From the NCBI GenBank assembly GCA_008632985.1, contig QPGO01000014.1, positions 820,289 through 844,461 on the forward strand: a stretch of 24,173 bases of DNA, written 5' to 3'. Position 1 is the stretch's first letter, and each line of letters opens with the position of its first letter. Source of the DNA: Psammoneis japonica (lineage: Eukaryota). Shown piece by piece: positions 3,001 to 24,173 of the stretch. Below the pieces are notes generated by a model that saw nothing but the letters and a program-made list of their open reading frames with translations, was not told where the DNA came from and did not search any database. A program made the translations under genes and the position numbers.

Positions 3001-6000
3001 CTACAGTGCCTTCAACAAGCCCATCAGCGGTCCCGAGTTTGGCACCAAGTGATGTCCCGTCGACTAGACCATCAGCTCAACCAAGTGACTTGCCTTCTGT
3101 GACACCGTCTATGGTGCCTTCGACAAGCCCGTCAGCGGTCCCGAGTTCGGTGCCAAGTGCTGTCCCGTCGACTGGTCCATCAGGTCAACCTTCGACAAGC
3201 CCGTCCGCGGTGCCGAGTTCGACACCCAGCGATATCCCATCAACTAGTCCATCAGCTAAACCAAGTGATGTGCCTTCTGTACAACCGTCTACAGTGCCTT
3301 CAACAAGCCCGTCAGCGGTCCCGAGTTTGACACCAAGTGATGTCCCGTCGACTAGTCCATCAGCTCAACCAAGTGACGCGCCTTCTGTGACACTGTCTAT
3401 GGTGCCTTCGACAAGCCCGTCAGCTTTCCCGAGTTCGGTGCCAAGTGCTGTCCCGTCGACTAGTCCATCAGGTCAACCTTCGACAAGCCCGTCCGCGGTA
3501 CCGAGTTCGACACCCAGCGATATCCCATCAACTAGTCCATCGGCTAAACCAAGTGATGTGCCTTCTGTACAACCGTCTGCAGTGCCTTCAACAAGCCCGT
3601 CAGCGGTACCGAGCTTGGCACCAAGTGATGTCCCGTCGACTAGTCCATCAGATCAACCAAGTGACGTGCCTTCTGTGACACCGTCTATGGTGCCTTCGAC
3701 AAGCCCGTCAGCGGTCCCGAGTTCGGTGCCAAGTGCTGTCCCGTCGACTAGTCCATCAGGTCAACCTTCGACAAGCCCGTCCGCGGTACCGAGTTCGTCA
3801 CCAAGCGATATCCCGTCAACTACTCCATCAGCTCAGCCAAGTGACCTGCCTTCTGTGACACCGTCTACAGTGCCTTCGACAAGCCCGTCTGCGGTCCCGA
3901 GTTCTGCGCCCAGCGATGTCCCGTCGACTAGTCCATCGGCTCAACCAAGTGATGTGCCTTCTGTCACACCATCTATGACGCCTTCAATACGCCCATCAGA
4001 AATCCCAAGTTTGGCTCCCAGCAGCATCCCGTCGACTAATCCATCAGCTAAACCAAGTGATGTGCCTTCTGTGATGCCATCATTGGTTCCTTCAAAAAGC
4101 CCATCAGCTGTTCCCAGTGCGGCTCCCAGTGATGTCCCATCAACTGGTCCATCCGTACAACCAAGCAACGTACCTTCTGTCACACCGTCAACAAGCCCAT
4201 CAGCTCTCCCGAGTTCCGCACCCAGTGACATTCCGTCTACGACTCCATCCGCTCGGCCAAGTGATGTACCTTCTGTTGCACCGTCGACCGTGCCTTCAAT
4301 TGGCCCATCATCAGCACCAAGTTCGTCTCCCAGCAATATCCCATCATTGAATCCATCTTCTGAACCGAGTAGGATGCCATCCTTGGCGCCTTCAACTGTT
4401 CCTTCAACAGCACCATCAGCAGTTCCAAGCGCGGTGCCCAGTAATATCCCGTCGACGACTCCATCCGTGCAACCCAGTAGCATCCCTTCTGTTGCACCGT
4501 CACCAGCACCTTCAATAAGCCCATCAGCTACCCCAAGTTCTGCTCCCAGCACTACACCATCCTTAGCGCCATCGAGTGTACCGAGCGCGTTTCCGTCTAG
4601 CTCGCCATCTTCAGAGCCGTCTAGCAGGCCGTCTGCATTTCCTTCGGCGGCGCCATCTTATGTGCCAAGTAGAGTTCCAACGGGAGTTCCTAGCGGCATT
4701 CCTTCCAAGGCCCCATCTCATTTACCCAGTGGTGTGCCATCTGTCTCTCCTTCTGCAGAACCCTCGGAAATGCCGTCAGGGGAACCTAGCAAAGGACCTT
4801 CGACAGCTCCTTCAGGCCTTCCTTCGAATGCGCCCTCCGGCGTTCCAAGTAGTATGCCCTCGGATAGCCCAAGTTCAATCCCGAGTAATGCTCCATCACT
4901 ATTGCCTAGTAATTTGCCGTCCCAAACTCCTTCATCGCTACTTTCGATGACTCCGTCTAATATTCCATCAATGGCACCAAGCGTCTTTCCGTCCATCCAG
5001 CCTTCTCATGACCCTTCCAGCGATCCAACAAGTGCTCCAACTCAGATGACCTCGAGAATGCCATCCGATAGTCCAAGTTCTGCTCCATCCGTCATGCCGA
5101 CCATCGCACCGAGCAGAGAGCCAACCTTGCTTCCAACCTCATCACCGAGCATTTCTCCGTCAAAAGCACCATCCCAAGCCCCCACCCTAGCTCCTTCTCT
5201 GCATCCAAGCAGCGTGCCATCAAGCTTGCCGACAGCGGAACCAAATGCCTCGGTGATATTCCAGATCTCAACGAATGGGACTGAAAATGCGATAATCAAA
5301 GTTGGTGAAACAATAAACTCAACCTACACCATCATCAACAACGGCAATGTGGCTCTTTCGAACATTAATCTCACTGACAACCGTGGCGTAACTCCCACCT
5401 ATCTTTTTGGCGACAATGACAATGACGGAGAAATTGACGTGAATGAAACGTGGGTCTTCGAAGCAATAGAGGTCGCCCAGTTTGGACCGCAGACGATTAC
5501 CGGGGTCGTGTCTGCAAGCATTAACGGACAAAACTTCACTTCGCAATACTCAACTTCATACTTGGGAGGGGTTCCATCTCTGAGCGTCAATCTTTCGACA
5601 TACGACGAGGAAACTCCAAAAGTGAAAGTTGGCGATCCAATCAACACAACTTACACCGTCACCAACAGGGGCAACGTGCCTTTATCGAACATTGATTTTT
5701 CTGACAGTCGAGGCGTGACCCCCACGTTACTTTCAGGGGATACAAACAATAACGAAGAGCTTGACGAGGGCGAAACATGGATATTCCAAGTTATCGAGTT
5801 TGCCCTGTCTGGATCTCAAAACATTACTGGAACAGTAACGGCCGAAGTAAATGGGGAGGTTTTCGAGACACAGTATTCATCTTCCTACATAGGCGCGTCT
5901 CCGTCGCTCAAACTCACTCTCTTGACAAATGGTTTGAATGAAGCGGGACCGATTCCTACTGGCACGGACATGGTTCGGATTTTCCTCGTGGACAACGAAG

Positions 6001-7784
6001 GTGATGTACCGCTTTCCAATATAACAGTCTATGACAATGAAGGAGCCACGCCGAATCGAATCCAGGGTGACGTCAATAAAAACGATTTGCTTGATCTTGA
6101 CGAACAGTGGTATTTGTACAACCCGGCAGGGCTCAACAGGGCCAGTTCATCAACACTGGATTTGCATCGGGCCTTTTTGGTAATGTAGTGGTAAGCGATG
6201 ACGACTCGAGCTCTTACCAAGGAGTGGGAACCGACGCGCCGACGGCTGGGCCCACGACTGCAACGCCAACAGGCTCGCCTTCGCGGCTGCCAACCACGGG
6301 TGAGCCAACCCCCCTTCCTACGATAGACCCCGATCCATCCATCTCTATTCAAGCAACAGGAAATGGCTTTGATATCCTAGTTATTCGCCAAGGCGAGACC
6401 ATTAAATGGAGGTATCGAATCGTCAACACGGGCAACGTTGCCCTGTCCAATGTTGTTGTTACTGGAGGCGCAGATTCGTCCGATCTTGTACTTGGTTCTG
6501 GCGATTTGAATTTCAATAATGAGCTTGATCCTGGCGAAATTTGGGAGTATGATGTTGATGGTGTAGCCGAAATGGTTTGTTTAGCGTCGTGGGAAAGGTT
6601 TCTGCAGAGTACAATGCTGCATCCCTTTCAGCGGTCGACTCGAGTTTGTACTATGGAATAACGCCGGAACCAGAAATTGGCATTCAAGAGGAAGCCGACG
6701 CTGTTCTCAATGTTACAAAGTACACAGTCACAAATAATGGAGAAAGCCCGCTTTCAGATTTGCAATTTACTCCCAAACAAGGTGTAGAACTACCAACATT
6801 GATCTCTGGGGACCTCAATTTTAACGGTGAACTTGATGAGGGTGAGAGTTGGGTATACGAGGCTGCTGGTGTTGCCAGTTACGAAGAAGAGCCGGTTCTT
6901 GTGACTGCCATGGCGGAAGCGGCACGGAGATTATGGCGGTTCCCCTTTCCTACCTACCCGCCGATCCTCCACCCCCACAGAATGCAGGGGTGGAAATAAC
7001 CACCGTCATAAATGGAGAGGATGGTTTGATTGTTCCTGTAGGAGAAGAGTTGATATTTGAGTATTACATCTTCAATTCGGGTGATGCCCCTTTGACCAGC
7101 ATTTCCGTTACGGAGTTGCATGCCGGAGTAAATCCTGATTTGATAAATTCAGACTTAGCTGGTGACAAAAGTAATGTTGCTCTAGAACCGGGCGCAACAT
7201 TGATCTATCAAGCGACTGCAATCGCCCAGGCGGGTCTGCAAGAGAGCGTGGGCGTTGTCACGGCAAGTTACAATGACAATGCAGTGTCCGATCAAGACCT
7301 GAGTTCGTATTTGGGTATTATTGGTGGAGAAGACCAAGGCTGTCAACCAAGCGTTTGGATTAAATCGAAGCAGGCTTGGCAACGCTATCGGCCAAACAAC
7401 AAGTTTGACACGGTGTTTGGTGTCGAGGCCTTTCCTCGCAAGAGCCTCAACAACGTCCTCGAGCAAAGCGGGTCGGGTGCAAAACAGGCACTAGGCAGAC
7501 AGGCTGTGGCTGCGCTTCTAAATTCGGCCAACAACAGGGTTTCTTATGGACTGTCGACCAACCATGTCATTCGTTTGGTCAAGCAAGCGTATGAAGCCCG
7601 AGACTATCATGAGGCAAAAGCGATGCTGAAGCGGCTCAACAAACGGACGTGTCCGTCTCGTATTGGCAGTGAAAATCTCCCGCCCACCCGACGTCCAACT
7701 CCTCGCAGAACCAGGCGACCGCGACGCAATAATCGTTCCAAGGGAGGAAAGGGTGGCAAAGGAGGCGGTGGCCTTCAACGGTAA
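3..7784 (+). CDS. Giant cell-surface/extracellular mucin-like adhesin candidate (>2500 aa, 5' end probably outside the window): N-terminal globular part, ~1500-aa PSxx stalk, six DUF11/DUF7507-like Ig-type repeats, a bacterial-type C-terminal domain and a basic/Gly-Lys tail
   Basis: The frame of ORF 147..6188 is open from base 3 (DETINILSSLENLKQ...), so ATG147 is probably internal. ORFs 6107..6661, 6577..6999 and 6849..7784 continue the same repeat-domain protein if one base is restored at each of ~6110 (tgg[g]ta), ~6572 (gaa[a]at) and ~6919 (gaa[a]gc). Recurrent motifs are Y-x-I/V-x-N-x-G-N-V-x-L-S-N and GDxNxNxELDxGExWxY/F. It ends ...RPTPRRTRRPRRNNRSKGGKGGKGGGGLQR-stop. Confidence 0.85.
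690..5240 (+). repeat. Coding tandem repeat: 12-nt (PSxx) unit with a 108-nt (36-aa) higher-order repeat in the homogeneous core (~1650-3960)
   Basis: Translation is continuous P-S-x-x. The unit PSTSPSAVPSSAPSDVPSTSPSDQPSDVPSVQPSTV recurs, and 'acaagcccgtcagcggtcccgagt' recurs at 108-nt spacing. Shorter PSGQ-containing variants are interspersed. Confidence 0.95.
5250..7320 (+). repeat. Six ~105-110-aa Ig-like (DUF11/DUF7507-type) domain repeats with acidic DxNxNxxLD loops
   Basis: The repeats start near ASVIFQISTNG, PSLSVNLSTYD, PSLKLTLLTNG, PSISIQATGNG, PEIGIQEEA and AGVEITTVING. Each contains NxG(N/D/E)xxLxx(I/V/L) and a (D/E)x(G/N/D)(E/A)x(W/L)x(F/Y) motif. A PT-rich linker lies between repeats 3 and 4. 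Family assignment is by motif recall, not a search. Confidence 0.7.
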
Positions 7785-9627: not shown

Positions 9628-11030
9628 CATCCAAAAAAATCTACCCTCAGTTCTACCCTGTACCGTAGAGAGTAGTACTCATCCTACGGGGAAGAAGACC
9701 AACCCGTAGCCATCAGTATAGAAGCTACGTGCTAGTAATCAACCTACGCAAACCCCACGCGAGGAGTTGAACCCGAAAAAAAACTCCAAGACGAAGCGAG
9801 CGACGCTCAAAAAACACCGCGCCCTCACCTTGACCATGGCCTTTGAATGGTTGTGTTTGCACTCATTACAAAGCCCGCATTTTGGGCGTTTGATGCTTTT
9901 TTCTGAGGCACAGCTTTTCTCTCACTTTTTCTATTGTTTTGTGGTCGCTCATAGGTCTACCCGGCACCCATTGCAGCGACGGCATGAACACCGCTAAGGA
10001 TCAATATGACTATGGAAAAAAATGATGCTTGCAGTGGATTTGTTGCTGCTCCTCACCTCTTGGGTGTTTCGCGACTTTTGCTCCCAGAGAGGACACTGAC
10101 AGGACTGCCGCGTCTGACACAGTGGCATTCATAATCAAGCTCGGCTTCGGACTGCAAAGGTAAGAACAACAAAATTTGCTAATAATAATGTCGAATATGT
10201 GATGGAAATGTTTGTTTGTTGTACACATCTCATGTTTTGTGCGTTTGATGATTGTCAAGTGTGGCGCAGTTTTTTCCTCACAGTTTCTCCTGTCTCGCCG
10301 TCGCTGACAGGCCCACTCGGCACCCATTGCAGCATAGGTGCCAAGGTGAATACGGACCAAATAGTTATAAAAAAATGTATCTCAAGCCAAGGATGCGGAA
10401 CAATCTATTTAAAGATCAACGGCAGCAACCCTTGGTCGTGCCTTCCGCGCTAGGGAGCAGCTTGTTTTCTTCTCAAGCTGGTGGAAGTGCAATGAGGTGC
10501 TGATTGTTCCTTAGGCTAATGCAATTGTTTAGTAATATTTAAATATAAAATTCACAACAGTAATCTCAAATAGGTGCTTTAGAGCTTGTCAAAGTTGAAA
10601 GTAGTGCAAGTCGTTCGTCTGCTTTCCCACAGGGAGTGTGAAGGTTTCTACTGCACTCAGGACGCCTGTGAGTGCTGCTTGCCATGCCACCATAGATGCA
10701 GTTGGCATTGGTGCAGTTGCCGGGGTTGCATACGGCAACGCTCATGGTTGAGATGCCGCATTGAGACGAGTAGAACTTTCGAGTATTTTTTTTGTTCCTC
10801 CCGTCGCACTCGACATCACGCACCAAGGACAGACTGTTTAGATCGCGCGAAAGGGGCGCGCAGGGTAGAATTTTTGGCTCCGAAAATTCTACTGTACCTT
10901 CTACCTGAGTGGAATAAACAGTGGATGTACGGTAGATCTTTTTAGAAGATGCCAACACCGTATTGACATTTTTACATACGAGAATTCCACTTTCCAGTAG
11001 AAAAATGCTACTTGGGTAGAATTTTGGGTG
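9628..11030. mobile_element. Probable second non-autonomous TIR element (~1.4 kb) with a TA target-site duplication (Tc1/mariner-like ends)
   Basis: The left end ta|catccaaaaaaatctaccc (9626-9646) resembles the reverse complement of the right end gggtagaattttgggtg|ta (11014-11032), which reads ta|cacccaaaattctaccc. Clusters of TCTAC/GTAGA motifs lie at both ends, e.g. ttctaccctg 9651 and cagggtagaa 10861. The TIR is imperfect and no transposase is seen. Confidence 0.5.
9907..10333 (+). repeat. Diverged ~70-bp direct repeat pair
   Basis: 9907-9977 (ggcacagcttttctctcac...gtcgctcataggtctacccggcacccattgcagc) aligns with 10263-10333 (ggcgcagttttttcctcac...gtcgctgacaggcccactcggcacccattgcagc). Confidence 0.7.
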
Positions 11031-11069
11031 TAACGGTGCGGCACATCGAATCTCTAGAGAGCAGAGAGT

Positions 11070-12540
11070 GCGCCTGTGGAGGCCGTCACCAAAATGCAAA
11101 AGGATGCAATGTGTGCAAAACAAGCAGAGCAGCATTGCTGAAATTTTAATTGAATGTGAGCGAGGGAAACACACCTTGTTCCATCCATGAGGCTCAAGAA
11201 TCCATCCGCGGATGACTGCCAGATGTCCCCAATGGGAAGACAGTGGTGTCAGCCTGCCTGTCCTGACTCACACGCCCCACAAGTGCTCGCTCAACCCAAG
11301 TCAGCAGCTGATGTGAGGCAAGATGACTCTGCCACAAACACCTTGCACCACACCACCACCCACAACAAACATCTGAGACAGTCAGAACCCAGTGCAAGCA
11401 TGCAGGCCTGGTGCCAGAGCTCAGGTTCTGAACGTTGCATGTCATCACACCCTTGTGGGCTCCAGCTGTGCAATCACACAAATTCTGAACTGCACACATC
11501 TCACTTTTCACCCCATTTTTCATCTCTTCTTTGACAAAAGACAGTGCGCTGTTGTTTGTTTGCAGGACATTGCAGCCATTGCTGGCAGCAGCACGCTTCT
11601 TGTTTTGTTTGATGATGTTGTTGGCGTGCTCCCAGAGTGTGCTGGTGGCAAAAAGATGTGCAATTTTCTGAGCATCGTTGTGCAACTCTGATTCTCTGTT
11701 TCCAATGAAATGGTGTCATTGGGGAAGTGCAAACAATTGTCAAAAACAAAGAGTTTGAAGTGGAGCAAAAACTTTGTGTGGGTCAAAACACACTTCAAAA
11801 TGTTTTCAATTTGTTGTGTGATGCCAGTGATGGAGCAAATTCACCTTTTTGTTGCTGACAAAACAGTGTTGTTTTGACAAATGGCATGTCATTTTCATTG
11901 TGATGTTTTTTAAATGCATTTGTTGACTTTGTGATGCACAACTGTGCCACCTTGAAGATGTGCACCTCAGCAGCCACGACCCATGCTGTCACAGAACCAC
12001 AGGACAATGTTGGCTGGTGCCACATGTTGGTTTCCGATTTTTAACCTTTTGGGAAAACAGCTTGGCAGCCTCATGTTCTTGACAAGCATTTGTCTTCTAC
12101 CTGCCCTGAGATGACTGCAAAATGATTGGATGAGCCACTGCAATTAGAAAGTTTGTTTCCTCCTCCTGTTGGCACAAACGGTGAGGTGCTCACAATGCTG
12201 CATTTTGACACAACTGAGCAACCACAAAGTCTGCTCAAAATGGCATGATGCAGGGGCAGAAGTCACTGCCACTGCTCCTGCCTGGGTGGACAGTCATTTG
12301 GTTCAGGACAGTGTTGTTCCTTTGTTGTTTGATCCACTTCGGTGGGGCAGCACCGGACAGTGGCACCAACCTTGGCCAATCATCACAACATGTTCCCACT
12401 GCACAATTCTGTGTGTCGCTGGTGCAGGTTAGCGTGTTGCCAGAGTTGCTGGGTAGAAGCATTGCAGCAGCACCTAAAATGTGGACTTTGTTTCTTCTTG
12501 TGTGCCAGGCGCCACGTGTCATTCCAGTCCTTTGCGTGAG
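11070..12540. other. TpA/CpG-depleted, TpG/CpA-enriched hypermutated block (degenerate repeat or pseudogene relic)
   Basis: Manual count gives 8 TpA in 11101-12540, six of them in YTAR context. Overlapping Cys/His-rich, essentially Tyr-free spurious ORFs occur on both strands. Normal TpA density resumes at ~12553. Confidence 0.85.
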
Positions 12541-12653
12541 CTCTGGTGCGAATTATGTTGTGGGTAGTTTTAGTTGTCAAGCACTAACACGCAAAATAAA
12601 GTACCAGGCATTAATTTCTAACCGGCAAGCAAAGGAAAATGTTATTGAGTCTC

Positions 12654-14550
12654 TCAAGGAGAGGCAAAGGTGCTGAAAAATGTTTGCCATTCGGGTTCTG
12701 CCAGAATTGTCTTAGAATCAATCCAACAATAGATTTTCCTGTTGACCTTCTTGTCAAAACGCTTTCGAAGTTTCTCTGGACGTTTCGGATCTGGCGCTCC
12801 CAATTCAGCATGTTGATCCAAGGCAAGTGATTTGGTGAACAAGTCATTTAGAATGCCGTCTTCTGGACAAAGCATGCGCAAATCCAGAGCGGTTTGATTC
12901 ATTTTTTCTTGATGTTTCATTATTGCATTGATAACATTCGGTCGACTCCACAATGTGGTATCAATCAGGCCCGCCCGATTGGCGTCCAATGCCAAACCGC
13001 TGTAATACAGCCAATGAATGTTGCCCTTGTTTTCAACAGATTTTGAGCCTCCTTCAGCGTCACGTCGCATAATTTCCTTGCATGAAGCGGGAGCAGCACC
13101 CTCAAGCATGTCACACACAAATGCCGAACGCAATCCCTTGGGGTTGTTCAAGTCCAGAACTTTGACAGGGAAATACTTTGAAGCCATGTCCACTATAGAA
13201 TCAGTAAACCAGTTGAGCGTCGAGATCCAACCGGTATATACGCCCCAATCGTTGTTTTTGTCTGCAAACAGTGGTTGCACATAATGCTTTTCGCCCTTGT
13301 CGTCTATCCACGGAAACCTTTCGTCATAGCTCAACTCAGATGATTGCCACCAAACAGAGGGCACCCATTCAAAATATGGTCGATAGCCACTAATAATGCT
13401 GACGTCCCAGTCCTCCTTGGTAATTTGATATAGTTTTTCGTACTGTTTTTCATCATGTAATAGGACGATTGAATACCCTTCCTTAGATAGAATGATGTTC
13501 CTGCCGTAGTGTTTAAGATGGTCTAACTCTTTCGCCCAAAGGTCAAAAAAGTTTGATCGTCAAAAGGAATGTTACTCAATTCAGTACCCATGACCGTGCC
13601 ATCCTGAAACGTGTGTTCTTCATTCACATAATGCCAATTGTCTTGTTCCAAGAACCCATGCCAAGCCAATTCGGTCAATGCAGCTTGGACTGTAGTCGTT
13701 CCCGTTTTCGGAGGTCCAACGTGTAAAACAAGTCGTTGCTTTCTTTTGGATTTTGCGACTTCAACCTTGTCACTTGTCTCAAAAGATTGTTCATCCTGAA
13801 TTAGATTTGCATTACTGACAGGCCTCAAATCATTTCGCTTTTGTTTTGGCCGTTCTCGCCACCTATCGTCTCCGGCAATTTCGCATCAAGAGCCATGTTA
13901 GTAGGCGCCCCAGGTGGTGTATCTTGTTCATCTTTTGTCATGGACGGTTTCACGGCTTCTACCGCAACAGCAGGGTTCAAGTCGCTAGCTTCCACAACCG
14001 CGGGGGCAGGAGCACCAAGAGGTGGTGTATCTTGTTCGGATTGTGCGACTTCAACCTTGTCACTTGTCTCAGAAGCTTGTTCATCCTGAGTTGGATTTGT
14101 AGGTACTGCTGCTGCATCACCCGCACGCCTCAAATCGTTTCGATCTTTGTTCTCACCAGCTATCGTCTCTGGTAATTTCGCATCAAGAGCTATGTTGGTA
14201 GGCACATCACGTGGCGTATCTTGCTCGTCTTTTTTCATGGACGTTTTCACGGCTTCCACAACAGCAAGGTTCAAGTTGCGAGCTTCCGCAACCGCGGTTT
14301 GTTCATCCAGTTCCTTTTCTCCAGCTGTCGACTCAGAAGTTGGTGGATCAACGGGGGTATCGCCAATTGCTGCAAAAATCGCTCCGATCTGTTCTGTGGG
14401 ACGCAGGCATGGAAACGAAGGCACAATTGGAGCTCCAGCTTGTAGAACCAATAGCTGAGAGTGCAGGATGATGTGCAGCACAGCACCTGCATATAGCGCC
14501 AAATAAAGAAAGTGTTTCGAGAAACGTCGGTTTGCTGTTTGAAATGTCAT
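12654..14550 (-). CDS. Type II membrane-anchored sulfotransferase-like (P-loop) protein with a duplicated acidic stem; two apparent frameshifts
   Basis: ORF 13825..14550 has an N-terminal hydrophobic anchor (HFLYLALYAGAVLHIILHSQLLVL). ORF 13523..13828 has RLVLHVGPPKTGTTTVQ, a PAPS-binding-loop-like motif. After a shift at the homopolymer ~13545-13550 the frame reads FDLWAKELDHLKHYGRNIILSKEGYS...WDVSIISGYRPYFEWVPSVWWQ and joins ORF 12654..13364. The shift at ~13838 is supported by the intact first repeat copy (ENKDRNDLR). Confidence 0.75.
13750..14300 (-). repeat. Internal ~100-codon tandem duplication in the stem of the sulfotransferase-like gene
   Basis: Two copies of AV.EA..LN.AV.VEAVK.SM.KDEQDTP...PTN.ALDAKLPETI.GEN...RNDLR...QDEQ..ETSDKVEVA.S. 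Confidence 0.85.
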
Positions 14551-15263
14551 GGCTGAACAAGAGGCGTTGACGACAAGAACTCGCCACTCCTCTGCGTTTC
14601 TAAAACTTGCGCTTCCAAGAGCGGTCGGTGTTCACGGTTGCACGCACCCTCCAACCTCCAACCCAATCGCAGAAAGCAGTCCTCTTGCAGATTAACGGCT
14701 AGACGTACACTCGTTATCGATTTTGAATATTACAGTATATCCATTTGGTCAATCAATGTGCTAAGAAATGAATACATATATATCATTTATAACATCTACG
14801 TAAATAATTGTGTCAAATACTATTGAGATGACATTGATTCACAACGTCCGTCACGCGTGCGTCGAACGAGAACTGGTCTTCATTCATCCTGTCTTCGTTG
14901 CGCGTGAACGGAGCACGGAGCGCTTATTAGTACTTGCTTTTTGTGCTACACAGTACACAGTGTAACCGAATGAAACCTTACCGGTGCATGCCATATAACT
15001 TTTGTTGGTCACAATTGGGCACACAAAGTCGGTGAGCGACCAGCGAATTACAGACATAAATGCAATTTGATTGGCTCAAAATACAGCCTGATATGAACTG
15101 AACAACGAGCAGCGCACGAAAGGTGAGTCTTTGCTGGGCGATGATGGACGCGCAGTCTCCTTTTCAACTGCCTTTCTTATAGAAAGGAACCTTATTTTTT
15201 CATTGTTACTTGATCGCTGCTTTTCTAAAACTTGCCGTTTTTTCAAGACATTCTTTTGCGACC
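14551..15263. promoter_or_regulatory. Divergent (head-to-head) intergenic promoter region
   Basis: Lies between the minus-strand ATG at 14550 and the plus-strand ATG at 15264, with an AT-rich core at ~14720-14840. The call is positional inference only. Confidence 0.4.
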
Positions 15264-17189
15264 ATGAGTAATCTTCTTGGCTGCAGAGAACAAAAGACAA
15301 GGAAGCTTACCGCAGACGCTCAACTGCAGTTCGAAAATGAGCAGGCAAGGCTTGTAGCTCGCGAAAAACGCAAAAAAAGTCGAGCTGCAACTGCGACAAG
15401 TATAGCAGCAGGTACAGCTTTAGTTGCGCCGGCTATACGGGACACTGGCTCTAAGAAGAAATCACCCACAAACAGCTCGGTAGTAGACAGCCCCGTTGTA
15501 GTTGATGCATCTGAGGGAAAGAGCTCTGAAGATGATGCTTCTCGGGATGTATCCTCGAACCTAGAAAACGCCTCAAGTGACTTGGGCAAAGGAAGGAGGA
15601 CAAGAAAACTTACCGTTGAAGCGCAGTTGCAACTTGAAAATGAGAAAGAAAGGCTTTTAGCTCGCGAAAAGCGCAAAAAAAGCCGAGCTGCATCTGCGGC
15701 AAGTACAGCAGCAGGTACAGCAGTAGTTGCGCTGTCTATGAGGGACACTGGCTCTGAGAAGAAATCACTCACAAACGGCTTGGTAGTGGACAGCCCCGTT
15801 GTAGTTGATGCATCTGGGGGAAAGAGTTCTAAAGAGGTTGCTTTTCGGGACGTATCCTCGAACCAAGAAAACGCCTCAAATGTCTTGGGCAAAGGGAAGA
15901 GGACAAGAAAGCTTACCGCGGAAGCGCAGTTGCAACTTGAAAATGAGCAGGCACGTCTTGTAGCTCGCGAAAAGCGGAACAAAAGTCGAGCTGCGGCAGG
16001 TACAGCGGGCGGTGGCGGCGTTGACAGTGCTGTCGACGGTGGCGCAAGAGACAATACGGCGAAACTCAGTTCCAGAAAAAGAACTGAATCAGACAGAAGC
16101 CCAGATACCGGAGCGCAGAAGATGCCCGCGTCCAAACGCCAACGCAAAACAGCAAGCGTCAAAAAGCCGCGAAAGACTGCTCCCAAACTAGTCGGAAATA
16201 GTACGACAGAATCGGAGAACGACGAGGGCAGCGAATCCACTTCCAGCGCGAATACACCCCCCGCAGCCGTGGCAACCAACGGGATAACGATTGACTTGTC
16301 GTCAACTCATCAACCAGATCCCATGGTGACGTTGCTCGCTCATGAGAATGCGCTCAAAGCGCAGCGAGACGAATTACAGAGAGAGCATGCCGTTCAGATT
16401 GCTTTTTTGAAGCAAAAGCACCAGGCTGTAATTAATGCACTAAGGGACAAACTCGAGCAACAGGAGTTTGACAAGCGCAGGAAACTAGTGGCGAGAAACG
16501 ACAAACTGCAAGCCGAGCTGGCCGAAAGCAACAAGAAACAAAAGGCGGACGCAAGGAAAGTCAAAAAGATGGAAAGAGAACTCGAGCAGCTAAAAGATGC
16601 AGACAATGGAGATCCGCGAAGGCGAAAGCGCAAACTGAGTGTCAAAAACAGTCAGCTCTGGGACCAGCGATTTGAAGAGCTAAAAGCCTACAAAGCTTCT
16701 CATGGAACCTGCCTCGTACCAACAACACAGTACCCGGAGCTTGGTTATTGGGTTTCTCGGCAAAGGACGAACCAAAAATTGTATGCGAGTGGAAAGGAAT
16801 CCTCAATTACATCCGAACAAATTCAGAAACTAGACAGCATTGGAATGGTTTGGGGGAACCTTCTTCATCGCAGTGTGTCGTGGGAAGAACGGTACCAGCA
16901 ATTACTCGATTACAAGGCAAAACACGGGCATGTCCGTGTTCCTCATTTGCTTAAGGAGCCTCACGGTCTTGGAGAGTTTGTGCAAGCTATGAGGAGCGCG
17001 TACAAGTCTCTAAACAACAATGACTCTACCTCGAAACCGCGGAAAATAACGCCGGAACAAGTGGAGAAGTTGGAAGCAATTGGATTTGAATGGTCCCTTC
17101 GCACGAGGGGTACCAAAGAGAAGCACAGACTTGCCGCGTCACTGGAGGAGTCGCAAGAGATTATGGAGGAACCTTTTCCTTTGCATTGA
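15264..17189 (+). CDS. Helicase-associated (HA, PF03457-like) domain protein with two C-terminal HA domains, a coiled coil and N-terminal repeats; probably nuclear
   Basis: Intact ORF, first ATG at 15264. HA motifs are WDQRFEELKAYKASHGTCLVP...LGYWVSRQR...QIQKLDSIGMVW and WEERYQQLLDYKAKHGHVRVP...LGEFVQAMR...QVEKLEAIGFEW. NLS-like basic runs include PRRRKRK and SKRQRK. No helicase motor motifs are present. Confidence 0.9.
   Translation: MSNLLGCREQKTRKLTADAQLQFENEQARLVAREKRKKSRAATATSIAAGTALVAPAIRDTGSKKKSPTNSSVVDSPVVVDASEGKSSEDDASRDVSSNLENASSDLGKGRRTRKLTVEAQLQLENEKERLLAREKRKKSRAASAASTAAGTAVVALSMRDTGSEKKSLTNGLVVDSPVVVDASGGKSSKEVAFRDVSSNQENASNVLGKGKRTRKLTAEAQLQLENEQARLVAREKRNKSRAAAGTAGGGGVDSAVDGGARDNTAKLSSRKRTESDRSPDTGAQKMPASKRQRKTASVKKPRKTAPKLVGNSTTESENDEGSESTSSANTPPAAVATNGITIDLSSTHQPDPMVTLLAHENALKAQRDELQREHAVQIAFLKQKHQAVINALRDKLEQQEFDKRRKLVARNDKLQAELAESNKKQKADARKVKKMERELEQLKDADNGDPRRRKRKLSVKNSQLWDQRFEELKAYKASHGTCLVPTTQYPELGYWVSRQRTNQKLYASGKESSITSEQIQKLDSIGMVWGNLLHRSVSWEERYQQLLDYKAKHGHVRVPHLLKEPHGLGEFVQAMRSAYKSLNNNDSTSKPRKITPEQVEKLEAIGFEWSLRTRGTKEKHRLAASLEESQEIMEEPFPLH
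15285..15995 (+). repeat. 303-nt (101-aa) tandem repeat x ~2.3 in the N-terminus of the HA gene
   Basis: TRKLTx(E/D)AQLQxENExxRLxAREKRxKSRAA occurs three times, with 'cttaccg' at 15306, 15609 and 15912. Confidence 0.9.
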
Positions 17190-17753
17190 TTGGGTGATGT
17201 ATTTGGAACGGCCAACTGGAACAACGGCTTACGATTCAACGCGTTTTCAACGAGTCGACAGGGAACCCTGGTAGAGTGTTGTGTAATTGGATCGGGGACG
17301 TGTGGGGAAAAACAGTCGAAAAAGGGAGAATGTTGTCCAACGCAGAAATTCTAGAGGCTTTGGGCTAGAAGAGCAAACAGCTTGCAGTTCAATTGAGTAG
17401 CAGCACGGGATTCCATATGTTTTATCGGCTTATGCCTTTGTGCAATTCAATCATAATTGATGCTGGTTGCCCGGAAGAAGAAAACATAGATTTCACGTTG
17501 GAGCCATCGTTTTGCTTGTGTCTCGCTTTCTATGCCTGGTGTTCGTACAATCTCGTTCTCTAGTTGGTTTCATGTTGGCTAAACGTTCGTCCTTGTAATT
17601 GATTGGCTGTGTTCAGGTAAGCGCAAAAGTATTGGGACGACTCGTTTCGAGATTCAGGAGTACACCTGGGCCATCACGCATCGACATGTCTGATTTGAAT
17701 CGAGCACTGCCTCTTTGCTACGTCTGTTTGTACTTCATTTCGTGAACCCGTCG

Positions 17754-19369
17754 TCATTTCCGTTTGCGAAACGACCCTACATTCCAGCTACACTTCAGCT
17801 CTCCTCCGATCCATTTCAAGCTCATCCTCGGCTGCTTCCAGAAAACCACCAAAACTTCGTCATCCTCTTCTTTCTTCAAATCATCAGCTTCACCAAGAGC
17901 CAATAGCTCATCTTCTTCATCATCCGAAAGAACGTCGGAGCCAGGCGGAGCTTTCATGATGCGTTTCGTCTCCTCGAATTCCTCCTGGGCCGTCTCGATC
18001 GCTTCAACAAGACGTTCGTTGCGTTCCTCTAGTGTCATGGCCGCTTCCTCCTCAGCGCGTTTTCTCGTATCAGCTTCATCCGCTTCTTCTCGAGTAAAGC
18101 CTTCATCTGGCAATATGAAATCGTCAATTCTACCTTTAGCAAGATTCTTGTACGATATCGGCATGACATCTAAACAGTACATCCACCTCATGGATGCGGC
18201 ATTCGTCTCGGCGATAAGCGTATTCACAACCAGTGGGTCGTCACCCGCCAAAAGTTTTCATTGTGAAAGGGATCAAGGAATCGCTTGGCAAGATCAAAAG
18301 ACCTTGAAAGCACAATGTCATGAGTCCGGATCCCATGAGAGTCAAAATAGCGACGATCCTCGAGTCACAGCAACAAAGGGATACATCCACAAGACGGCAT
18401 CCACGAGGACTTGGACAAAGTGAGCATACGCAAACGGCATGCGACCCTTGAGAACAGATTCCATCGAATTGCCTTGAGCCCGAATTTCCTGTATTTTGGT
18501 AAGCAAAATTTGTTCAAAACCAAAGCCACCATCAATAATGCCAGCCTTTTGACCTTCCAGTACGAGTCGCAAGATCCACATTAAAACCGCATTGTGACGC
18601 TGATTTGGCGGAATTTTCGCTTCAATCAACAGAGATCGTTCCTGCGTTGTCATGAGTCCTCGTGAAACCATTCGCCTCATCCCTTGAGGCGTCAAGAGTG
18701 GTCGATGCGAGCGAGTCAGAGACGCGTAGACCAATATATTAAAGAGTCGGATATACCGAGCCGTGATTGTCAGGGTCCGTCGAGCATTTTCAGAAAATGT
18801 GGAACTTCCAGGAGGAGTTCATCCGAGCGCTGGCTAAAGCCTGCAAGCGCCAATATCAAATCATTCATTTTCCCTTGCAGAGCTCTACATGTCTGTAGAC
18901 AAGTGCGCCAGATTTTGTAGGACTGATTGACAAAAAAGGTCAACGTGAAAGTCGTCACAGATAATACTTGCATGTAAAGCGAGGAGAATTCTGTCAGAGC
19001 ATAATGAAACAGCGGCGTCCGTTTCATGCACACGTATACCGCAACAGCCCAGAGAGTACCTCGGAGGCAAGAAACCCACGTTTCTGCAAATACGGTTCCT
19101 CTGTATTGACTCCACATGGCTTTACTGGAAGGCTCAAATTGAATCATAATGGGTCGACGGCCACTGGTTCTCAAACAATCATCAAGAATACCATCTAGAA
19201 TTTCTTTGGTAGATGTCTGTTCCATAAGGATTGGCTCTATGTTGAGGACTCGTAAGCTGCTCGAGAGTCGTGACGAGTGACATGTAGAAAAGGCCTCCAC
19301 AGTAGCAGTGCATAGGAGAAGCATCCAAGGCGACATGAACACTCGTAAACGACAACATCGTGCCTTCAT
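17754..19369 (-). CDS. Plastid-targeted bestrophin-like (UPF0187/BST-type) anion channel; several apparent 1-bp frameshifts
   Basis: ATG 19369 gives MKARCCRLRVFMSPWMLLLCTATVEA|FSTCHSSRLSSSLR, a signal peptide + Phe + Ser/Arg transit peptide. Bestrophin-like motifs are TTFTLTFFVNQSYKIWR, ARYIRLFNILVYASL, MPFAYAHFVQVLVD and FQGLFDLAKRFLDPFHNE. The frame is restored by single-base additions at ~18820, ~18358, ~18297 and ~18250. A further one at ~17855 would give the end SFGGFLEAAEDELEMDRRRAEV with a stop at 17788. Confidence 0.82.
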
Positions 19370-20344
19370 TCTTGCTACAACTTGCAACAAACAGAGAGAC
19401 TAAAGACAACACAACATTGGACATTGCGAGAGAACCGAGAACCGAAAAAAAAAAACAAAGAAGATCATGTTGCGGTTTCAGTCACGAGTATCCAAGAGTA
19501 AAATTGCCGTCCTGAGATTTTTTCGAATTCTTGAGCGAAAAATGCATTTTTTGAGTGCAAGCACCTGGCTTTGAGTGCAATCCCCAATGGGAAACAAAAG
19601 CAGGCTGGAACTTGAAATGGAGGTGGCAAGCTTTGGCTTTTGTCACCAAAGGCTTTGTGTGCACTTCAGAGACACAAACCCAAGTTAAGATTGTGTGTTT
19701 GAGCATTTCAAGGCCTCACCATTTTGCCCTTGTCAGCTGTCACTTGTGATTTTCCAGAGGCCCATCTGGTCAAGGTGTTTGGGGGAGCTCCTCAAGGTGA
19801 GCACCATGAGAATTGTGTGCACTGAGCCATCATTCTGAAAAAGCACCTTCATGGCAAGGAAGATCTGTTGCCCCAGGACTTGAAGACACACACACCCAAA
19901 GGCATGCACTGGGTCTAGCGTGGGCCTGCATGTGGCCAACTGCAAGATGCAGTTTGATTGTGAGGCACCACAAGTGCTTGGCGGGGGTTCCGTCTCACAA
20001 AATCATGACAATTGTCAGGCCAGGCCAATTTGCAACCCCGATGGGATGATTCCAAGCTTGCGGGGCAGTGTGTTGCAATGGTGCGTCGCAGCACTTCTGC
20101 TCTTTTTGTTTGTGGTGAAGTGGCAGTTCCAGGTCTGTCACATGCACGGCAATCCCACTGTTGCAAATTAAATTGTCCTGTTGTGATTTCAGTTTGGCTG
20201 TCTGTGAACAACAGGGGAGCTTCGCTTGTTCTTTCCCGTGTTTGTGCTGTGAAGGTCACTCATCTGAGTCTGTGTTGGCCTTGAAGGACCCATTCTTGAT
20301 TGACCCAATGGCGAGTGGCAAGGATTGTTGAGCACAAAAGTCCT

Positions 20345-21211
20345 TCATCCATCCCCTCTGTTTCCAATTCTTTCACCCAACAGGACATTGTTGCAGCCAA
20401 GAAAAAGGGAGCAGCAAGTTTTGGCCACGTCATCGTCCTCCGACACATGGCACGCTTCAACGCTGTCTTTGATTTTCTCACAGAGAGTCTCTGCATGGGC
20501 CACGGCATCATTGCCGACTTGATTGGATTCACCAAGTGGGACAGCCCTGGATGTGATGTTGCTGAAAAAGGAAAGGGTCAAGGATGACAATGCCGCCTCG
20601 GCCAAGTTGGAGCATTTCTTGTTGCTGACACTGGCCCAACAAACGGAAAAAACAGCATCCACCCAGGTGTTCAAGGCGCTCGGATGACTGAATGCATGGC
20701 TCTTGATGCATGTTGCAGCAACAGACTGCATGTCTGTCTCCACCAAGCCACACTCATTTTGACTCCGATGCATCCAAAACCTGTGTAGAATCCAAGCCGT
20801 GTGCAAGATTTCAACACCCTCTTGGAGTCTTTTCATGATCTTGCAACTGTCATCGTGCAAGAGGAGGCAAATTGCATTGTTGAATCCATCGGTGTGGTTT
20901 GCAGCTTGATGGGCAACAGCACCATCCATTTCTTGAGTTGCAAAGTCAAGCTCATCAAAGGTTTCACGTAAATTGTTGAGAGGCATTTGCATGATGCCCT
21001 TCACAGCGAGAACAAGACACTTGGCATTGCATTTGATTTTTTCTTTCATGTGCGGACATGCATGTTTGTGGCCACCACATTCCCAGTCTTGCAACTGACA
21101 CTCTTTTGAGCAGCAGCAAGTGGAATGGCAATTGCTGCATTTGAACCGGCTGGACACCTTGAAGCATCGACAACACTCGGGTGGCACAACCGGCATCAAA
21201 TTCAAGAACAA
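20345..21211 (-). pseudogene. Hypermutated MYND zinc-finger gene relic
   Basis: CCRCFKVSSRFKCSNCHSTCCCSKECQLQDWECGGHKHAC matches the MYND consensus CxxC...CxxC...YCSxxCQxxDW..HK..C, but the conserved Tyr is Cys. There is no Tyr in 288 codons, with excess Cys/His. Confidence 0.8.
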
Positions 21212-21467
21212 ACAAACGTGTTGCGATCATTTGCACTTCAGAATTTTGGATTTCCAAAAAAATCATCGCCGCATCAATTTCAGTGACGACCGTTAAACTG
21301 TGTCCCATTTGCTGTGTTTTGCACATTTTTGAACTTGTTCATGAGAAGTGATGGTCACCATGATGTGATGGTGAAAACAGAAATGCATCTGTGCATTGTG
21401 AATGCTCCCCATGAAGAAACCACAGGTGAATGATCATGGCTTCCCCACTTTTTGCGGGCAGTGGTCA

Positions 21468-22478
21468 TCAACGGATCTTTTGGCATGTCTTTGAAAGAGT
21501 TGAAATCGTTGATGTTGGGTGCCCCCCTTGTTGCATCAACGTCTTCATTTCCATCCATGCGTTTTTTGTGCTAGAGAGCGCACAAAAGAGCAGTTGGCAA
21601 TGTGATTGGCATGCAAAACAGAAGGTTGATGAGTGAATGAGATTGGCGTGACAGTGCAAACAAAATCTGGAGAATTCAGGATGGATTGAAGAATGAAAAG
21701 GACCAAAGCATTGAGAAGCATTCATGCTGGTCAATTCAATGCAGCCATTTGCCAGGTGAGTTTGTGTGAAAAAATGACAACTCCTCTCCAGTGTGCTCAG
21801 AATGCAGACATGAGGAGAAGATGATTTTGTGTTCTCTCTTCCCAAACAAGAAGTCATGGTGCCATCCAAGATTCCATCTGGCAGACCTTGTCTTTTGTTC
21901 ACACTGCCCCAGGAGACCCATGCTCCATTGTTGACACTGCCCGCGCCTGCAATTAGACACATGCAGAGTCATTCAGCTTGACCACCATGTGCGCCAATTC
22001 CAGTTTGCGTGGATCTTTTGCTGCTTTGAAAAATCAAGAATTGCATCTCTCTTCCCAACAAGGGCTTGGGTGCAGCAAAGTGATTCAAAGCAGCGTCAGA
22101 AGCATGGCATGACTCGATGAGCTCGTCCCAATGGGCCTTCTTGGTGCACTCTTGAAATTTCTGGATCTTTTCCCGTGTCCTTTGTTCAGCAGATGACGTT
22201 GTGTTTTCTTTTTCAGTTTCTCTCTCTTCTCAAGTGTCCGAAGGATTTGTTAAAGTTGGAGGCACTTTTTCAAGAATGGACTGTGTCTCCCTCACATTCT
22301 TTCCCAGTTCCCATGCATGATTGATGCTGCACGCTGTCACATTTTGGCTGCACTGTGCTTTGTTCAAACAGCAAAGAGCAAAAGCCACAAAATTGCCAAC
22401 TTGACTGCAATCCTGATTGCAGCTCGATTGCGAACCGCAATCAAAACAATTGCAATCTGCTGATTGTTTGTCTGGCAC
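21468..22478 (-). pseudogene. Second degenerate reading frame of unknown product with in-frame TGA stops
   Basis: ORFs 22230..22478 and 21468..21962 are in the same frame. The gap reads SDT*EERETEKENTTSSAEQRTREKIQKFQECTKKAHWDELIES...GGQAE*LCMCLIAG, which is protein-like with TGA plausibly from CGA. Long open frames are cheap here because TAA/TAG are nearly absent. Confidence 0.4.
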
Positions 22479-22733
22479 TGGTCACAAAGATCACAATCGT
22501 GTTCACAATCAATTGCAATTGATTCGTGTCTAAAATTTTGTTGTGAATCAGGATTTTTGGCAAAAACGGGACCAAAAATCAACCGAAACGTGGTGTTCAT
22601 TCACCAGAAATGCGTTCTTGCATTTGTCAAGTTGTTTTCTCACCATTTGTTGCTGCCATGCCAATGGATCTGATGCTTGGTGCTGAGGTTAGAAAAGTGG
22701 CAGAGAAGTGTCAACACCCATTGGCACAGTGCC

Positions 22734-22932
22734 AATGCTGGGGTTGTCAAAGTCACAGAGTGTGTGGAGTGTGGAGCCCTCAAGAAGAGAGTCAGAGCTG
22801 GAAAATGTGGTGGCTGTTGTGGTTGTTTTGCTCAACAATGCTGGGATTGTCAAAGTCACAGAGTGCATGGGGCCTTTGTGAAGAGAGTCAAAGCTGGAAA
22901 ATGTGATGGCTGTTGCAGCTGTTTTGCTCAAC
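22734..22932 (+). repeat. Tandem duplication (~103 + 96 bp) within the hypermutated block
   Basis: aatgctggg(g/a)ttgtcaaagtcacagagtg...aagagagtca(g/a)agctggaaaatgtg(g/a)tggctgttg..g.tgttttgctcaac at 22734-22836 and 22837-22932. Confidence 0.9.
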
Positions 22933-24173
22933 ATCAAGCATGACATGGAAAAAGCAGCGCATCATCAGGAGCAGCACTTGAAAATGGCAACTTCATTCAG
23001 CCAGGGATGTTGGTCAATGCAAAGTGTCAGAAGTTGGCATCTGCTGCTCCTTGTGATCACCTGCTCCATTTTGTGGGTTTGGCTCATGCAGGTGCACTTC
23101 AAACACAGGAAGGTGAGCCCAAGCAGAAAGCCATGGTCTCATGACATTGGTCTGCGGTGTCAGAGTTGGGCCCACATTTTTAACCCCAAAGCTGCTGAAT
23201 GCAAACAAACCCAAAGTTGGAACAAGCATGTCAACATTGGAGCCAACCACAAGTTGATGCCAGCAAATTTGGGTTTTGGTCCAGGACACGGAGCCTTGCC
23301 CTCATTTTCACAATTTCATGAAGACTTCTCTGACAAAGTCTTTTTGCATGCATGGCCAATCCATCAACATGGGCAACAGGTTCAAAGTTGATGCAGAAAA
23401 AGTTTGTTGTGTTGTGTTGTGTTGCAACAGGTCCAAAGTTGGAAGCAAAGCTGTGAGCTGCAAAAGCGAGCACACAAAATGAAGGCTTGTTTTTCACCTG
23501 CGTTCCAATTTTTTGCTGCAGAGGTGAGCAATGTTCCCAAATGTCTTTGCACTGGGAGCTTTGTCAACATGGAAATGCTGTCATCTTGAACAGCCAAGCA
23601 CTTCTTCACAGATTCCAACAGGTCTGCAGTTCGCAGCTGTTGCAAGACATTGCTTGTTGGCTGAAGGTCTGAAATCCAAGGCAGTGTCTGGAGCCTTGTG
23701 CTGCACATCAGCGGTGGTTTTGGGCTGTTGTCAGTTGGTGCAGCCAAAGGAGGCAAAACACAGGATGTCTCTTTTGTGGAAGCAGCCAGGCAGAAGCCAC
23801 CAAGGAAGAAAACAGTCACTCACCCTCTTGAGGCAACAAGGTTTTTTTCAAAAAGCGAGACAGATCTTGCTTCTGCCACTCTCAAAGTTGTGTCTGAAGC
23901 CCCTGCTGTGAGAACCCAGCCAAGCAAGACAGCTGGAAAAGCCACTTTGGAAAACAACAACAACCAAGCTGGTGCTGCATGAAAAAAACTCTTGGAATGG
24001 AGTGCTTTGTTTTGGCAAGGGGGGGGGGGGCATTCTTTTCTCGTCATTGTTCATGCTGACTTGCCCAAACTGCATGTTTTCCAGCGGCTGCACTTTTTTT
24101 AAATTTTCACTTGTCAAACAACTTGCTTGATGCTGTGCAAAACAAGTGTGCCACCCAGGGCTGGCCAAAGTTG

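Follow-up and report, generated by a model that had tools for sequence, protein, structure and literature searches.

The window analysed here is a stretch of 24,173 nucleotides from contig QPGO01000014.1 (Psammoneis japonica, assembly GCA_008632985.1, positions 820,289 to 844,461 of the forward strand). Towards its 3' end, an open reading frame (ORF) on the reverse strand, 20345-21211, carries the probable remains of a gene for a protein with an N-terminal MYND zinc finger. The ORF lies within the second of two blocks from which the dinucleotides TpA and CpG have been erased to different degrees. In both blocks, TpA and CpG have been converted blockwise to TpG and CpA on both strands. Judged by its homologues, the ORF most likely derives, as a decayed and non-functional copy, from a family of ordinary host genes, a reading to which we assign a probability of about 0.8. 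The original prediction for this locus had described the ORF as a MYND pseudogene in which Tyr codons were turned into Cys and His codons.

Block 2, which starts at about 19500 and is at least 4.7 kb long, exhibits dinucleotide rho values of 0.04 for TA, 0.31 for CG, 1.82 for CA and 1.67 for TG, with a GC content of 0.468. The corresponding values for the rest of the window are 0.51-0.63 for TA, 0.91-0.98 for CG and 1.11-1.24 for CA and TG. The depletion of TA and that of CG fall together in the same 1-kb windows: the TA rho is 0.01-0.05 across the 1-kb windows of 20001-24000, and the CG rho is 0.13-0.43 in the block and 0.77-1.09 elsewhere. Mass balance of block 2 against positions 12431-19499 gave a combined loss of TA and CG of 0.0698 per dinucleotide and a combined gain of TG and CA of 0.0702, with a steady GC content (0.468 versus 0.470). 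This is the outcome expected if TA and CG turned into TG and CA by transitions. The CG loss, 0.0369 of the 0.0702, accounts for about half of the gain. The signature of block 2 includes non-coding DNA and ends sharply beside the neighbouring gene.

A Pfam scan of the 40 ORFs of at least 70 amino acids in both blocks yielded none that reached the cutoff and no transposase or viral domain, and the 12 ORFs scanned outside the blocks also contained no transposase or viral domain. Block 1 showed no recognisable coding content when its ORFs were compared with Pfam, and a repeat comparison within the window revealed no internal repeats linking blocks 1 and 2. Among 1137 1-kb windows from 80 metagenome loci encoding MYND proteins, none had a TA rho below 0.2; therefore, MYND genes as such do not show the erasure of TA.

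The reading frame and its protein family

The ORF comprises 288 codons from a TTG start, 293 from stop to stop and 283 from the first ATG, and its product contains 24 Cys, 14 His and no Tyr residues. An exhaustive phmmer search of 1.84 billion representatives with the ORF as query returned 51 proteins at E values of 1e-3 or lower, six of them at 1e-10 or lower. The best full-length match aligns query residues 6-254 with residues 50-301 of protein P0002 (E 3.4e-15) and is accompanied by five more full-span matches with E values of at most 1.6e-11. Several relatives with lengths of 350-465 amino acids align across query residues 6-254. When all fetched homologues were compared with the window by tblastn, every family match fell into one frame, from 21211 down to 20399, with E values down to 2e-21.

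Even the nearest known relatives share only 23-34% identity with the ORF. An alignment of the family (A1) reveals an N-terminal MYND finger followed by a C-terminal domain of about 300 residues, described as helical, with conserved motifs. The members, an unnamed family of the P0002-P0018 type, are 350-465 amino acids long and share the motifs YCS, GxY.AA, LFRGQR.EG, R.K.YV.S.P.A..W.DAS and ARD..A.W. This comparison identifies the ORF as a genuine relative of the eukaryotic proteins that combine a MYND finger with a C-terminal domain, and not as a chance frame, since the phmmer and tblastn homology extends past the finger across the C-terminal domain. About 70-100 residues at the C-terminal end of the family are absent from the ORF or can no longer be traced in it. 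A word-based protein search with the ORF gave 742 candidates, none at an E value of 0.01 or lower; the same type of search with alignment A1 found five proteins, none carrying a name, and a cluster look-up of eight homologues returned only nameless entries or the label 'hypothetical protein'. An Atlas cluster resembling the MYND family is commonest in Bacillariophyta, and this was treated as a lead only.

The zinc ligands of the finger are C8, C11, C20, C23, C29, C33, H43 and C47, that is seven Cys and one His in canonical spacing. These eight columns are invariant in the ORF and the 14 homologues of alignment A1, and the ORF also retains Q34, W38 and K44. Searched with its first 55 amino acids, the ORF aligns with the complete Pfam zf-MYND profile (PF01753, positions 1-39 of 39) at 14.5 bits (E 0.038), which is below the Pfam gathering cutoff of 22.7; a Pfam scan of the whole ORF produced no zf-MYND match. 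Two intact relatives score 35.8 and 36.1 bits, and a third, L005, scores 19.9 with a partial match. Thus, the ORF agrees with zf-MYND proteins in the C-x2-C...C-x2-C...C-x3-C...H-x3-C spacing and in the full-profile alignment, but differs from them in a score under the cutoff and in the replacement of a conserved Tyr by Cys. The Cys and His codons TGY and CAY would themselves be end products of the process proposed below, and because of this the eight zinc ligands would survive it and the finger would stay recognisable.

A weak second MYND-like tblastn match was observed at 21519-21662 (-), inside an ORF at 21468-21968 (-), with residues 22-58 of protein P0027 (E 0.008). Pfam detected only DZR in this region (E 0.65). 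The match may represent a second, more decayed finger.

Intact members of the family are uninterrupted, intronless ORFs in DNA with TA rho values of 0.43-0.63 and CG rho values of 0.67-1.15. Their neighbours include genes for PRMT (arginine methyltransferase), a zinc ADH, an ABC transporter, parvulin (rotamase) and an FkbM-type methyltransferase. In IMG/VR, two loci were matched among 44 candidate stretches, both by the finger alone. As far as sequence context tells, the family is host-type, because its intact members sit among ordinary genes in TA-normal DNA and the IMG/VR matches are limited to the finger. The original prediction had held that a host-type gene, and not only transposase DNA, was hit; the host-type nature of the family agrees with this, but the implied transposase component found no support, as none of the 40 block ORFs shows transposase homology.

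Direction of change and probable decay of the gene copy

The ORF was aligned with 24 homologues and an identical leave-one-out test was applied to each row. At Tyr-majority columns, Cys or His is found in the ORF in three of three cases and in the homologues in 0 of 71 cells (Fisher p 1.5e-5); the exceptions among the homologues are Phe or Trp, or another residue in two cells. None of the 24 homologues therefore shares the Cys and His residues that the ORF carries at these columns, in keeping with the original prediction.

For the comparison of codons, intact family DNA was taken from metagenome contigs, where the loci were located with a 5-row alignment. Of 80 loci kept, five (L001, L002, L003, L005 and L007) were used, L004 being dropped as the same protein as L003 and L006 as a duplicate of part of L005. 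Where homologue DNA has TAY, the window has TGC, CAT, CAC and CAT (Table 1), which supports the predicted loss from a TA-containing ancestor. A single gene exhibits both strand outcomes, namely Tyr-to-Cys (sense A-to-G) and Tyr-to-His (antisense). Two conserved Arg codons have changed by CpG-to-TpG and CpG-to-CpA steps. At residue 220, a Leu column, the window has CCA and homologue DNA has CTA, TTA or ATA; codon 168, adjacent to one of the former Tyr codons, is GCA (Ala) at a position where the family consensus is Val.

Table 1 Features of the window discussed in the text, with the corresponding codons of intact homologue DNA.
Feature	Position	Strand	Remarks
Block 1, TpA/CpG-erased	11147..12430		rho TA 0.06, CG 0.22, CA 1.92, TG 1.93
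Block 2, TpA/CpG-erased	19500..24173		runs off window end; 13 TA in 4674 bases
Copy of gene of MYND + C-terminal-domain family, most likely decayed	20345..21211	(-)	Met at 21196; TGA stop 20345-20347
MYND zinc finger	21056..21175	(-)	eight Zn ligands kept; Tyr28 now Cys
Codon 28, TGC (Cys)	21113..21115	(-)	Tyr of YCS; homologue DNA TAC/TAT 5/5
Codon 96, CAT (His)	20909..20911	(-)	Tyr of G-P-Y-K-A-A motif; homologue DNA TAC/TAT 5/5
Codon 132, CAC (His)	20801..20803	(-)	homologue DNA TAC/TAT 3/4, TTC 1/4
Codon 163, TGC (Cys)	20708..20710	(-)	Arg invariant in 24 homologues; homologue DNA CGT/CGA 3/4; CpG-to-TpG step
Codon 167, CAT (His)	20696..20698	(-)	Tyr of R-I-K-x-Y-V motif; homologue DNA TAC/TAT 3/4
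Codon 234, CAT (His)	20495..20497	(-)	conserved Arg; homologue DNA CGC/CGT 4/4; CpG-to-CpA step
Pro/Ser-rich repeat protein	3-6188	(+)	2061-aa open frame running off 5' end
Protein with two helicase-associated (HA) domains	15183-17189	(+)	Pfam HA E 5.6e-37
Bestrophin-like gene	18342-19399	(-)	

The absence of Tyr from the 288 codons, foreseen in the original prediction, was borne out by the count, and the three strings quoted there, TCCCSKECQ, WECGGHKHACPH and IKCNAKCLV, are all present in the ORF. The proposed change of the YCS Tyr to Cys was recovered at residue 28. The further claim that Cys and His occupy other Tyr positions held in part: residues 96, 132 and 167, all His, are such positions, but the two stretches named for it are not, since in alignment A1 the additional Cys and His residues of WECGGHKHACPH and IKCNAKCLV fall into columns that vary across the family and are not Tyr columns.

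Each intact homologue ORF contains 35-63 TA and 8-14 Tyr codons, and the window ORF contains two TA, in the Leu codons TTA and CTA, and no Tyr codon. At the Tyr content of the homologues (1.1-4.0%), zero Tyr in 288 codons has a probability of about 0.002. Translation of 19500-24173 in six frames gives two Tyr in 9344 codons, and that of neighbouring DNA gives 285 in 14134. In a block almost without TA, the lack of Tyr in the ORF is therefore a necessity. Read from these alignments, the polarity is from an ancestor with TAY and CGN to TGY and CAY, that is, mutation and not primary composition.

According to the opposite view, the lack of TA is the primary composition of foreign or viral DNA, or the result of selection against TA, and no mutation took place here. 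It would accord with the hypermutable regions of the alga Bigelowiella natans, which the available text of a preprint describes as integrated viruses (bioRxiv 10.64898/2026.01.13.699255), and with the absence, apart from the MYND ORF, of any block ORF that reaches the Pfam cutoff (0 of 40). This view is nevertheless very unlikely: TAY and CGN are replaced by TGY and CAY at the Tyr and Arg columns relative to the 24 homologues, TA is lacking to the same extent in the non-coding parts and in each of the six frames, the loss of TA and CG balances the gain of TG and CA exactly, and the intact family resides in TA-normal host DNA, with IMG/VR matches (2 loci, 44 candidate stretches) confined to the MYND finger.

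Beyond the Tyr columns, the ORF has diverged widely from its family. It agrees with the family at 53 of 117 conserved columns, compared with 52-83% agreement for the homologues, and retains one of seven conserved Arg columns. The conserved or near-invariant residues D9, Y28, K39, F141, R142, R145, D160, R163, R200 and D201 are all lost, with the substitutions F141W, R142M, R145S, D160A, R163C, R200E and D201A. The frame ends near family position 300-314 of about 380, and nothing recognisable follows downstream.

A live, fast-evolving MYND family member that tolerates Cys and His at former Tyr sites, its frame kept by selection despite the mutated surroundings, is an alternative to a decayed copy. 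Such a gene would explain the 283 homologue-aligned codons without a stop or frameshift, the retention of all eight zinc ligands together with the Gln, Trp and Lys noted above, and the absence of TGA from this frame, when each of the remaining five is interrupted by 4-13 stops in that span. We nonetheless regard a live gene as unlikely, given the match at fewer than half of the conserved columns, the loss of near-invariant D9, Y28, K39, R145, D160 and R163, the MYND score below the Pfam cutoff and the end of the frame some 70-100 residues short of the family C-terminus. Dinucleotide-preserving shuffles of the block, moreover, produced an ORF of at least 293 codons in 5.3% of 300 trials, and a process that yields only TG and CA seldom creates stops. 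As evidence of function the open frame counts for little, because such a process erases TAA and TAG and makes TGA from CGA or TAA only; intact family members have 3-6 CGA codons each. The original prediction was right that the frame stayed open, with no stop over 283 codons, but this is expected from a process limited to TG and CA products. An open frame is what that process would produce and is not a sign of constraint.

Several observations weigh against a decayed copy produced by TpA- and CpG-directed mutation. The lack of any stop or frameshift over 283 codons and the intact zinc ligands have been mentioned. Residue 162 (ACA) is a Tyr column that fits no single TA step, so that four of five Tyr columns fit. 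Single steps at TA or CG explain 14 of 89 mismatches over 155 conserved columns, compared with 20 of 233 in four intact controls (p 0.07), and thus do not dominate the differences as had been predicted; the remaining mismatches comprise 36 other single steps and 39 that need two or more changes. A variant of the test with the 24 protein homologues assigned 13 of 64 mismatches, plus five partly, to such steps. No near-ancestor exists among the known relatives, and the power of the mismatch-spectrum test is low because, at 23-34% identity, most differences are old divergence. CpG is depleted here in the same 1-kb windows as TpA, a difference from B. natans, as the word 'CpG' occurs 0 times in the available text of the preprint. 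Finally, a high-copy repeat with normal TA (10500-11147) abuts block 1; repetition alone is therefore no predictor of the signature.

Copies in sequencing runs and neighbouring genes

Three sequencing runs, all from one sample, contain the stretch, and none of them is listed as RNA. In run X1, positions 19387-22172 are covered by two contigs (1412 and 1400 nt) that match the window with 0 other letters and have depths of 30.5 and 34.6, and the flanking single-copy contig has a depth of 60.2. Other contigs, at depths of about 32-36, carry deletions or replacements at 19541-20067 and 21894-22029. Over the ORF and the block, the other contigs differ from the window by 9-14%, and in the flank by 8 letters in 3882 (0.2%). 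The block may thus be heterozygous, with two strongly diverged haplotypes. Over the ORF, run X2 contains two short contigs (depth 4) that differ from the window at 36 of 266 and 45 of 392 positions; no contig of this run is identical to the window there, which does not indicate silence.

A further alternative is an artefact of sequencing or assembly. No support for it was found beyond the fact that the runs come from one sample and are possibly the source of the assembly. The chance of an artefact is negligible in view of the two window-identical contigs and of a pattern that obeys codon logic relative to independent homologues.

Among the differences listed, nine of nine in block 1 (about 1.2 kb) are transitions, compared with 3 of 8 in flanking contig 3 (3.9 kb). 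Also among those listed, TG in one copy faces CA in another at the same dinucleotide at 11561-11562 and 22073-22074, a pattern that independent hits on an ancestral TA in two copies would produce. The contig differences hint at independent, possibly recent hits, and the contigs may be paralogues.

Positions 22356-24173 are multi-copy in run X1, with a summed contig depth of 146-564. This segment contains a direct repeat with 96-bp spacing (22772-22837 and 22868-22933, 85% identity) and has no recognisable coding content. A separate high-copy repeat occupies 10500-11411, where the summed depth in run X1 is 542-1268 as compared with about 60 for single-copy flanks. Its TA content is normal up to 11147, exactly the start of block 1, and its ORFs have no Pfam match. 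Possibly it inserted recently into a scar that was already old.

The genes of the window are long and intron-poor. At the 5' end lies a giant Pro/Ser-rich repeat protein (Table 1). Within 3-7784, several DUF7507 domains (E 5.1e-10 and 3.1e-07) lie behind the Pro/Ser-rich repeats and are distributed among shifted frames; this arrangement suggests a cell-surface protein whose frame is broken by an intron or by frameshifts. For the HA-domain protein, the one relative that carries a name comes from the diatom Attheya (35% identity). A 303-bp tandem repeat within its gene, at 15283-15994 (2.3 copies, 86% identity), encodes Lys/Arg-rich coiled segments. At 15119-15245, one contig of run X2 lacks 125 bases that are bounded by GT..AG and correspond to an intron of the HA-domain gene; because of this skipped intron, the contig suggests that run X2, although listed as 'DNA?', holds cDNA. 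The ORFs at 12654-13885 (-) gave no Pfam match above the cutoff and a weak Sulfotransfer_4 match (E 0.01). By Atlas features, the neighbours of one of them (12657-13559) are hypothetical proteins of bacteria, of which some contain sulfotransferase domains, again a lead only. A sulfotransferase-like gene of bacterial type may be located there.

Proposed process and known systems

In the proposed process, a block of at least 4.7 kb would have undergone context-specific transition hypermutation, in which nearly every TpA became TpG or CpA (A:T to G:C on either strand) and about two thirds of the CpG became TpG or CpA. Within the frame, TAY (Tyr) would be changed to TGY (Cys) or CAY (His), and CGY (Arg) to TGY or CAY. 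As TAA and TAG would be destroyed and TGA could arise only from CGA or TAA, the frame would stay open without selection. The lesion at TpA may be enzymatic, for example the deamination of adenine to hypoxanthine that has been proposed for B. natans. Alternatively, it may affect the opposite-strand T, or a modified T may pair with G; the palindromic site fits both routes equally. The original prediction took TGY and CAY as the two strand outcomes of A-to-G at TpA. Both do occur, but T-to-C at TpA is equally possible, because the dinucleotide is its own complement and the two changes are indistinguishable. Diatom repeats are CpG-methylated, and the CpG loss may have proceeded by deamination of 5-methylcytosine in silenced DNA. 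The block may have been targeted for being silenced or repeated; part of it is multi-copy.

The same dinucleotide might in principle have been targeted in RNA, by ADAR-like A-to-I editing at UA that was then fixed by reverse transcription, in which case the ORF would be an edited retro-copy. ADARs are not known outside animals. The ORF lacks introns, as a retro-copy would, and the available preprint text notes that ADAR prefers U upstream of the edited A (10.64898/2026.01.13.699255). Still, intact members of the family are intronless too, which renders the lack of introns uninformative. Editing of an RNA is extremely unlikely, as both strands are affected (CA rho 1.82, TG rho 1.67), Tyr-to-Cys and Tyr-to-His changes coexist in one ORF, and the signature spans at least 4.7 kb, including non-coding DNA, with a sharp stop beside the neighbouring gene.

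If DNA hypermutation is the source of these blocks, they carry a warning for annotation. Long open frames are the default in such blocks because TAA and TAG cannot exist there, and gene callers will predict Cys/His-rich 'proteins' that are scars.

Fungal repeat-induced point mutation (RIP) resembles the present case in that blockwise, context-dependent transitions at dinucleotides wreck coding sequence and leave a scar with sharp borders, and part of the block is multi-copy. According to the RIPCAL abstract, RIP converts CpA to TpA and enriches TA. RIP was rejected, as the direction here is the opposite, with a TA rho of 0.04 and CA and TG values of 1.67-1.82. The decay of CpG in methylated repeats shares the TG and CA products and the conversion of Arg to Cys or His at CGN codons, but would explain about half of the gain in TG and CA and none of the loss of TA.

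A process that rewrites TpA to TpG or CpA in chosen blocks was, going by the available text of the B. natans preprint, described only in 2026, in mutation-accumulation lines of one alga, a chlorarachniophyte. There, 231 of 302 de novo substitutions fell into two integrated viral regions, and all but one of the 231 are A-to-G or T-to-C changes, all of these at TpA (10.64898/2026.01.13.699255). The same text reports 124 clusters in the B. natans genome that are depleted in TpA and enriched in CpA and TpG, defined by a TpA rho of at most 0.43 and a CpA+TpG rho of at least 1.52 in at least three consecutive 1-kb windows; TpA-depleted coding sequences (CDS) are enriched in DDE transposase, reverse transcriptase and a zinc-finger Pfam, many affected CDS are unannotated, and some of the Pfams in affected CDS are likely of host origin (10.64898/2026.01.13.699255). 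Mettrop et al. propose an ADAT2-like DNA adenine deaminase (bioRxiv 10.64898/2026.01.13.699255). A literature search, conducted largely without subscription journals, turned up TpA hypermutation in this preprint only and no account of it from diatoms.

The blocks of the window fall within the preprint's cutoffs for TpA-depleted clusters, so far as the available text gives them, and share with B. natans both the change of TpA to TpG or CpA on either strand and the long-term footprint of TpA depletion with CpA and TpG enrichment. The TpA share of normal DNA is also similar, at 3.6% in the coding-rich normal DNA of the window and 4.1% in B. natans CDS, so that composition by itself is compatible with B. 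natans. The lineage is nevertheless probably a different one, as suggested by the diatom relative of the HA-domain protein and by the long, intron-poor genes of the window. In addition to the CpG depletion discussed above, the present locus differs in its near-complete loss of TpA (rho 0.04, as compared with 0.45 in the B. natans region derived from a nucleocytoplasmic large DNA virus, NCLDV) and in that the only recognisable content here is a host-type gene and not a virus or transposon. The locus provides an independent, sequence-only proof of direction, in which the conserved Tyr and Arg residues of the family serve as outgroup. We tentatively put at somewhat under even odds the broader proposal that TpA-targeted hypermutation also operates in a diatom-like stramenopile, accompanied by CpG decay, reaching host-type gene copies and repeats, and maybe still active. 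If so, the process is wider than one lineage and could be studied in transformable algae. The locus itself is a new, outgroup-polarised instance of the process already described in B. natans, probably in a second lineage.

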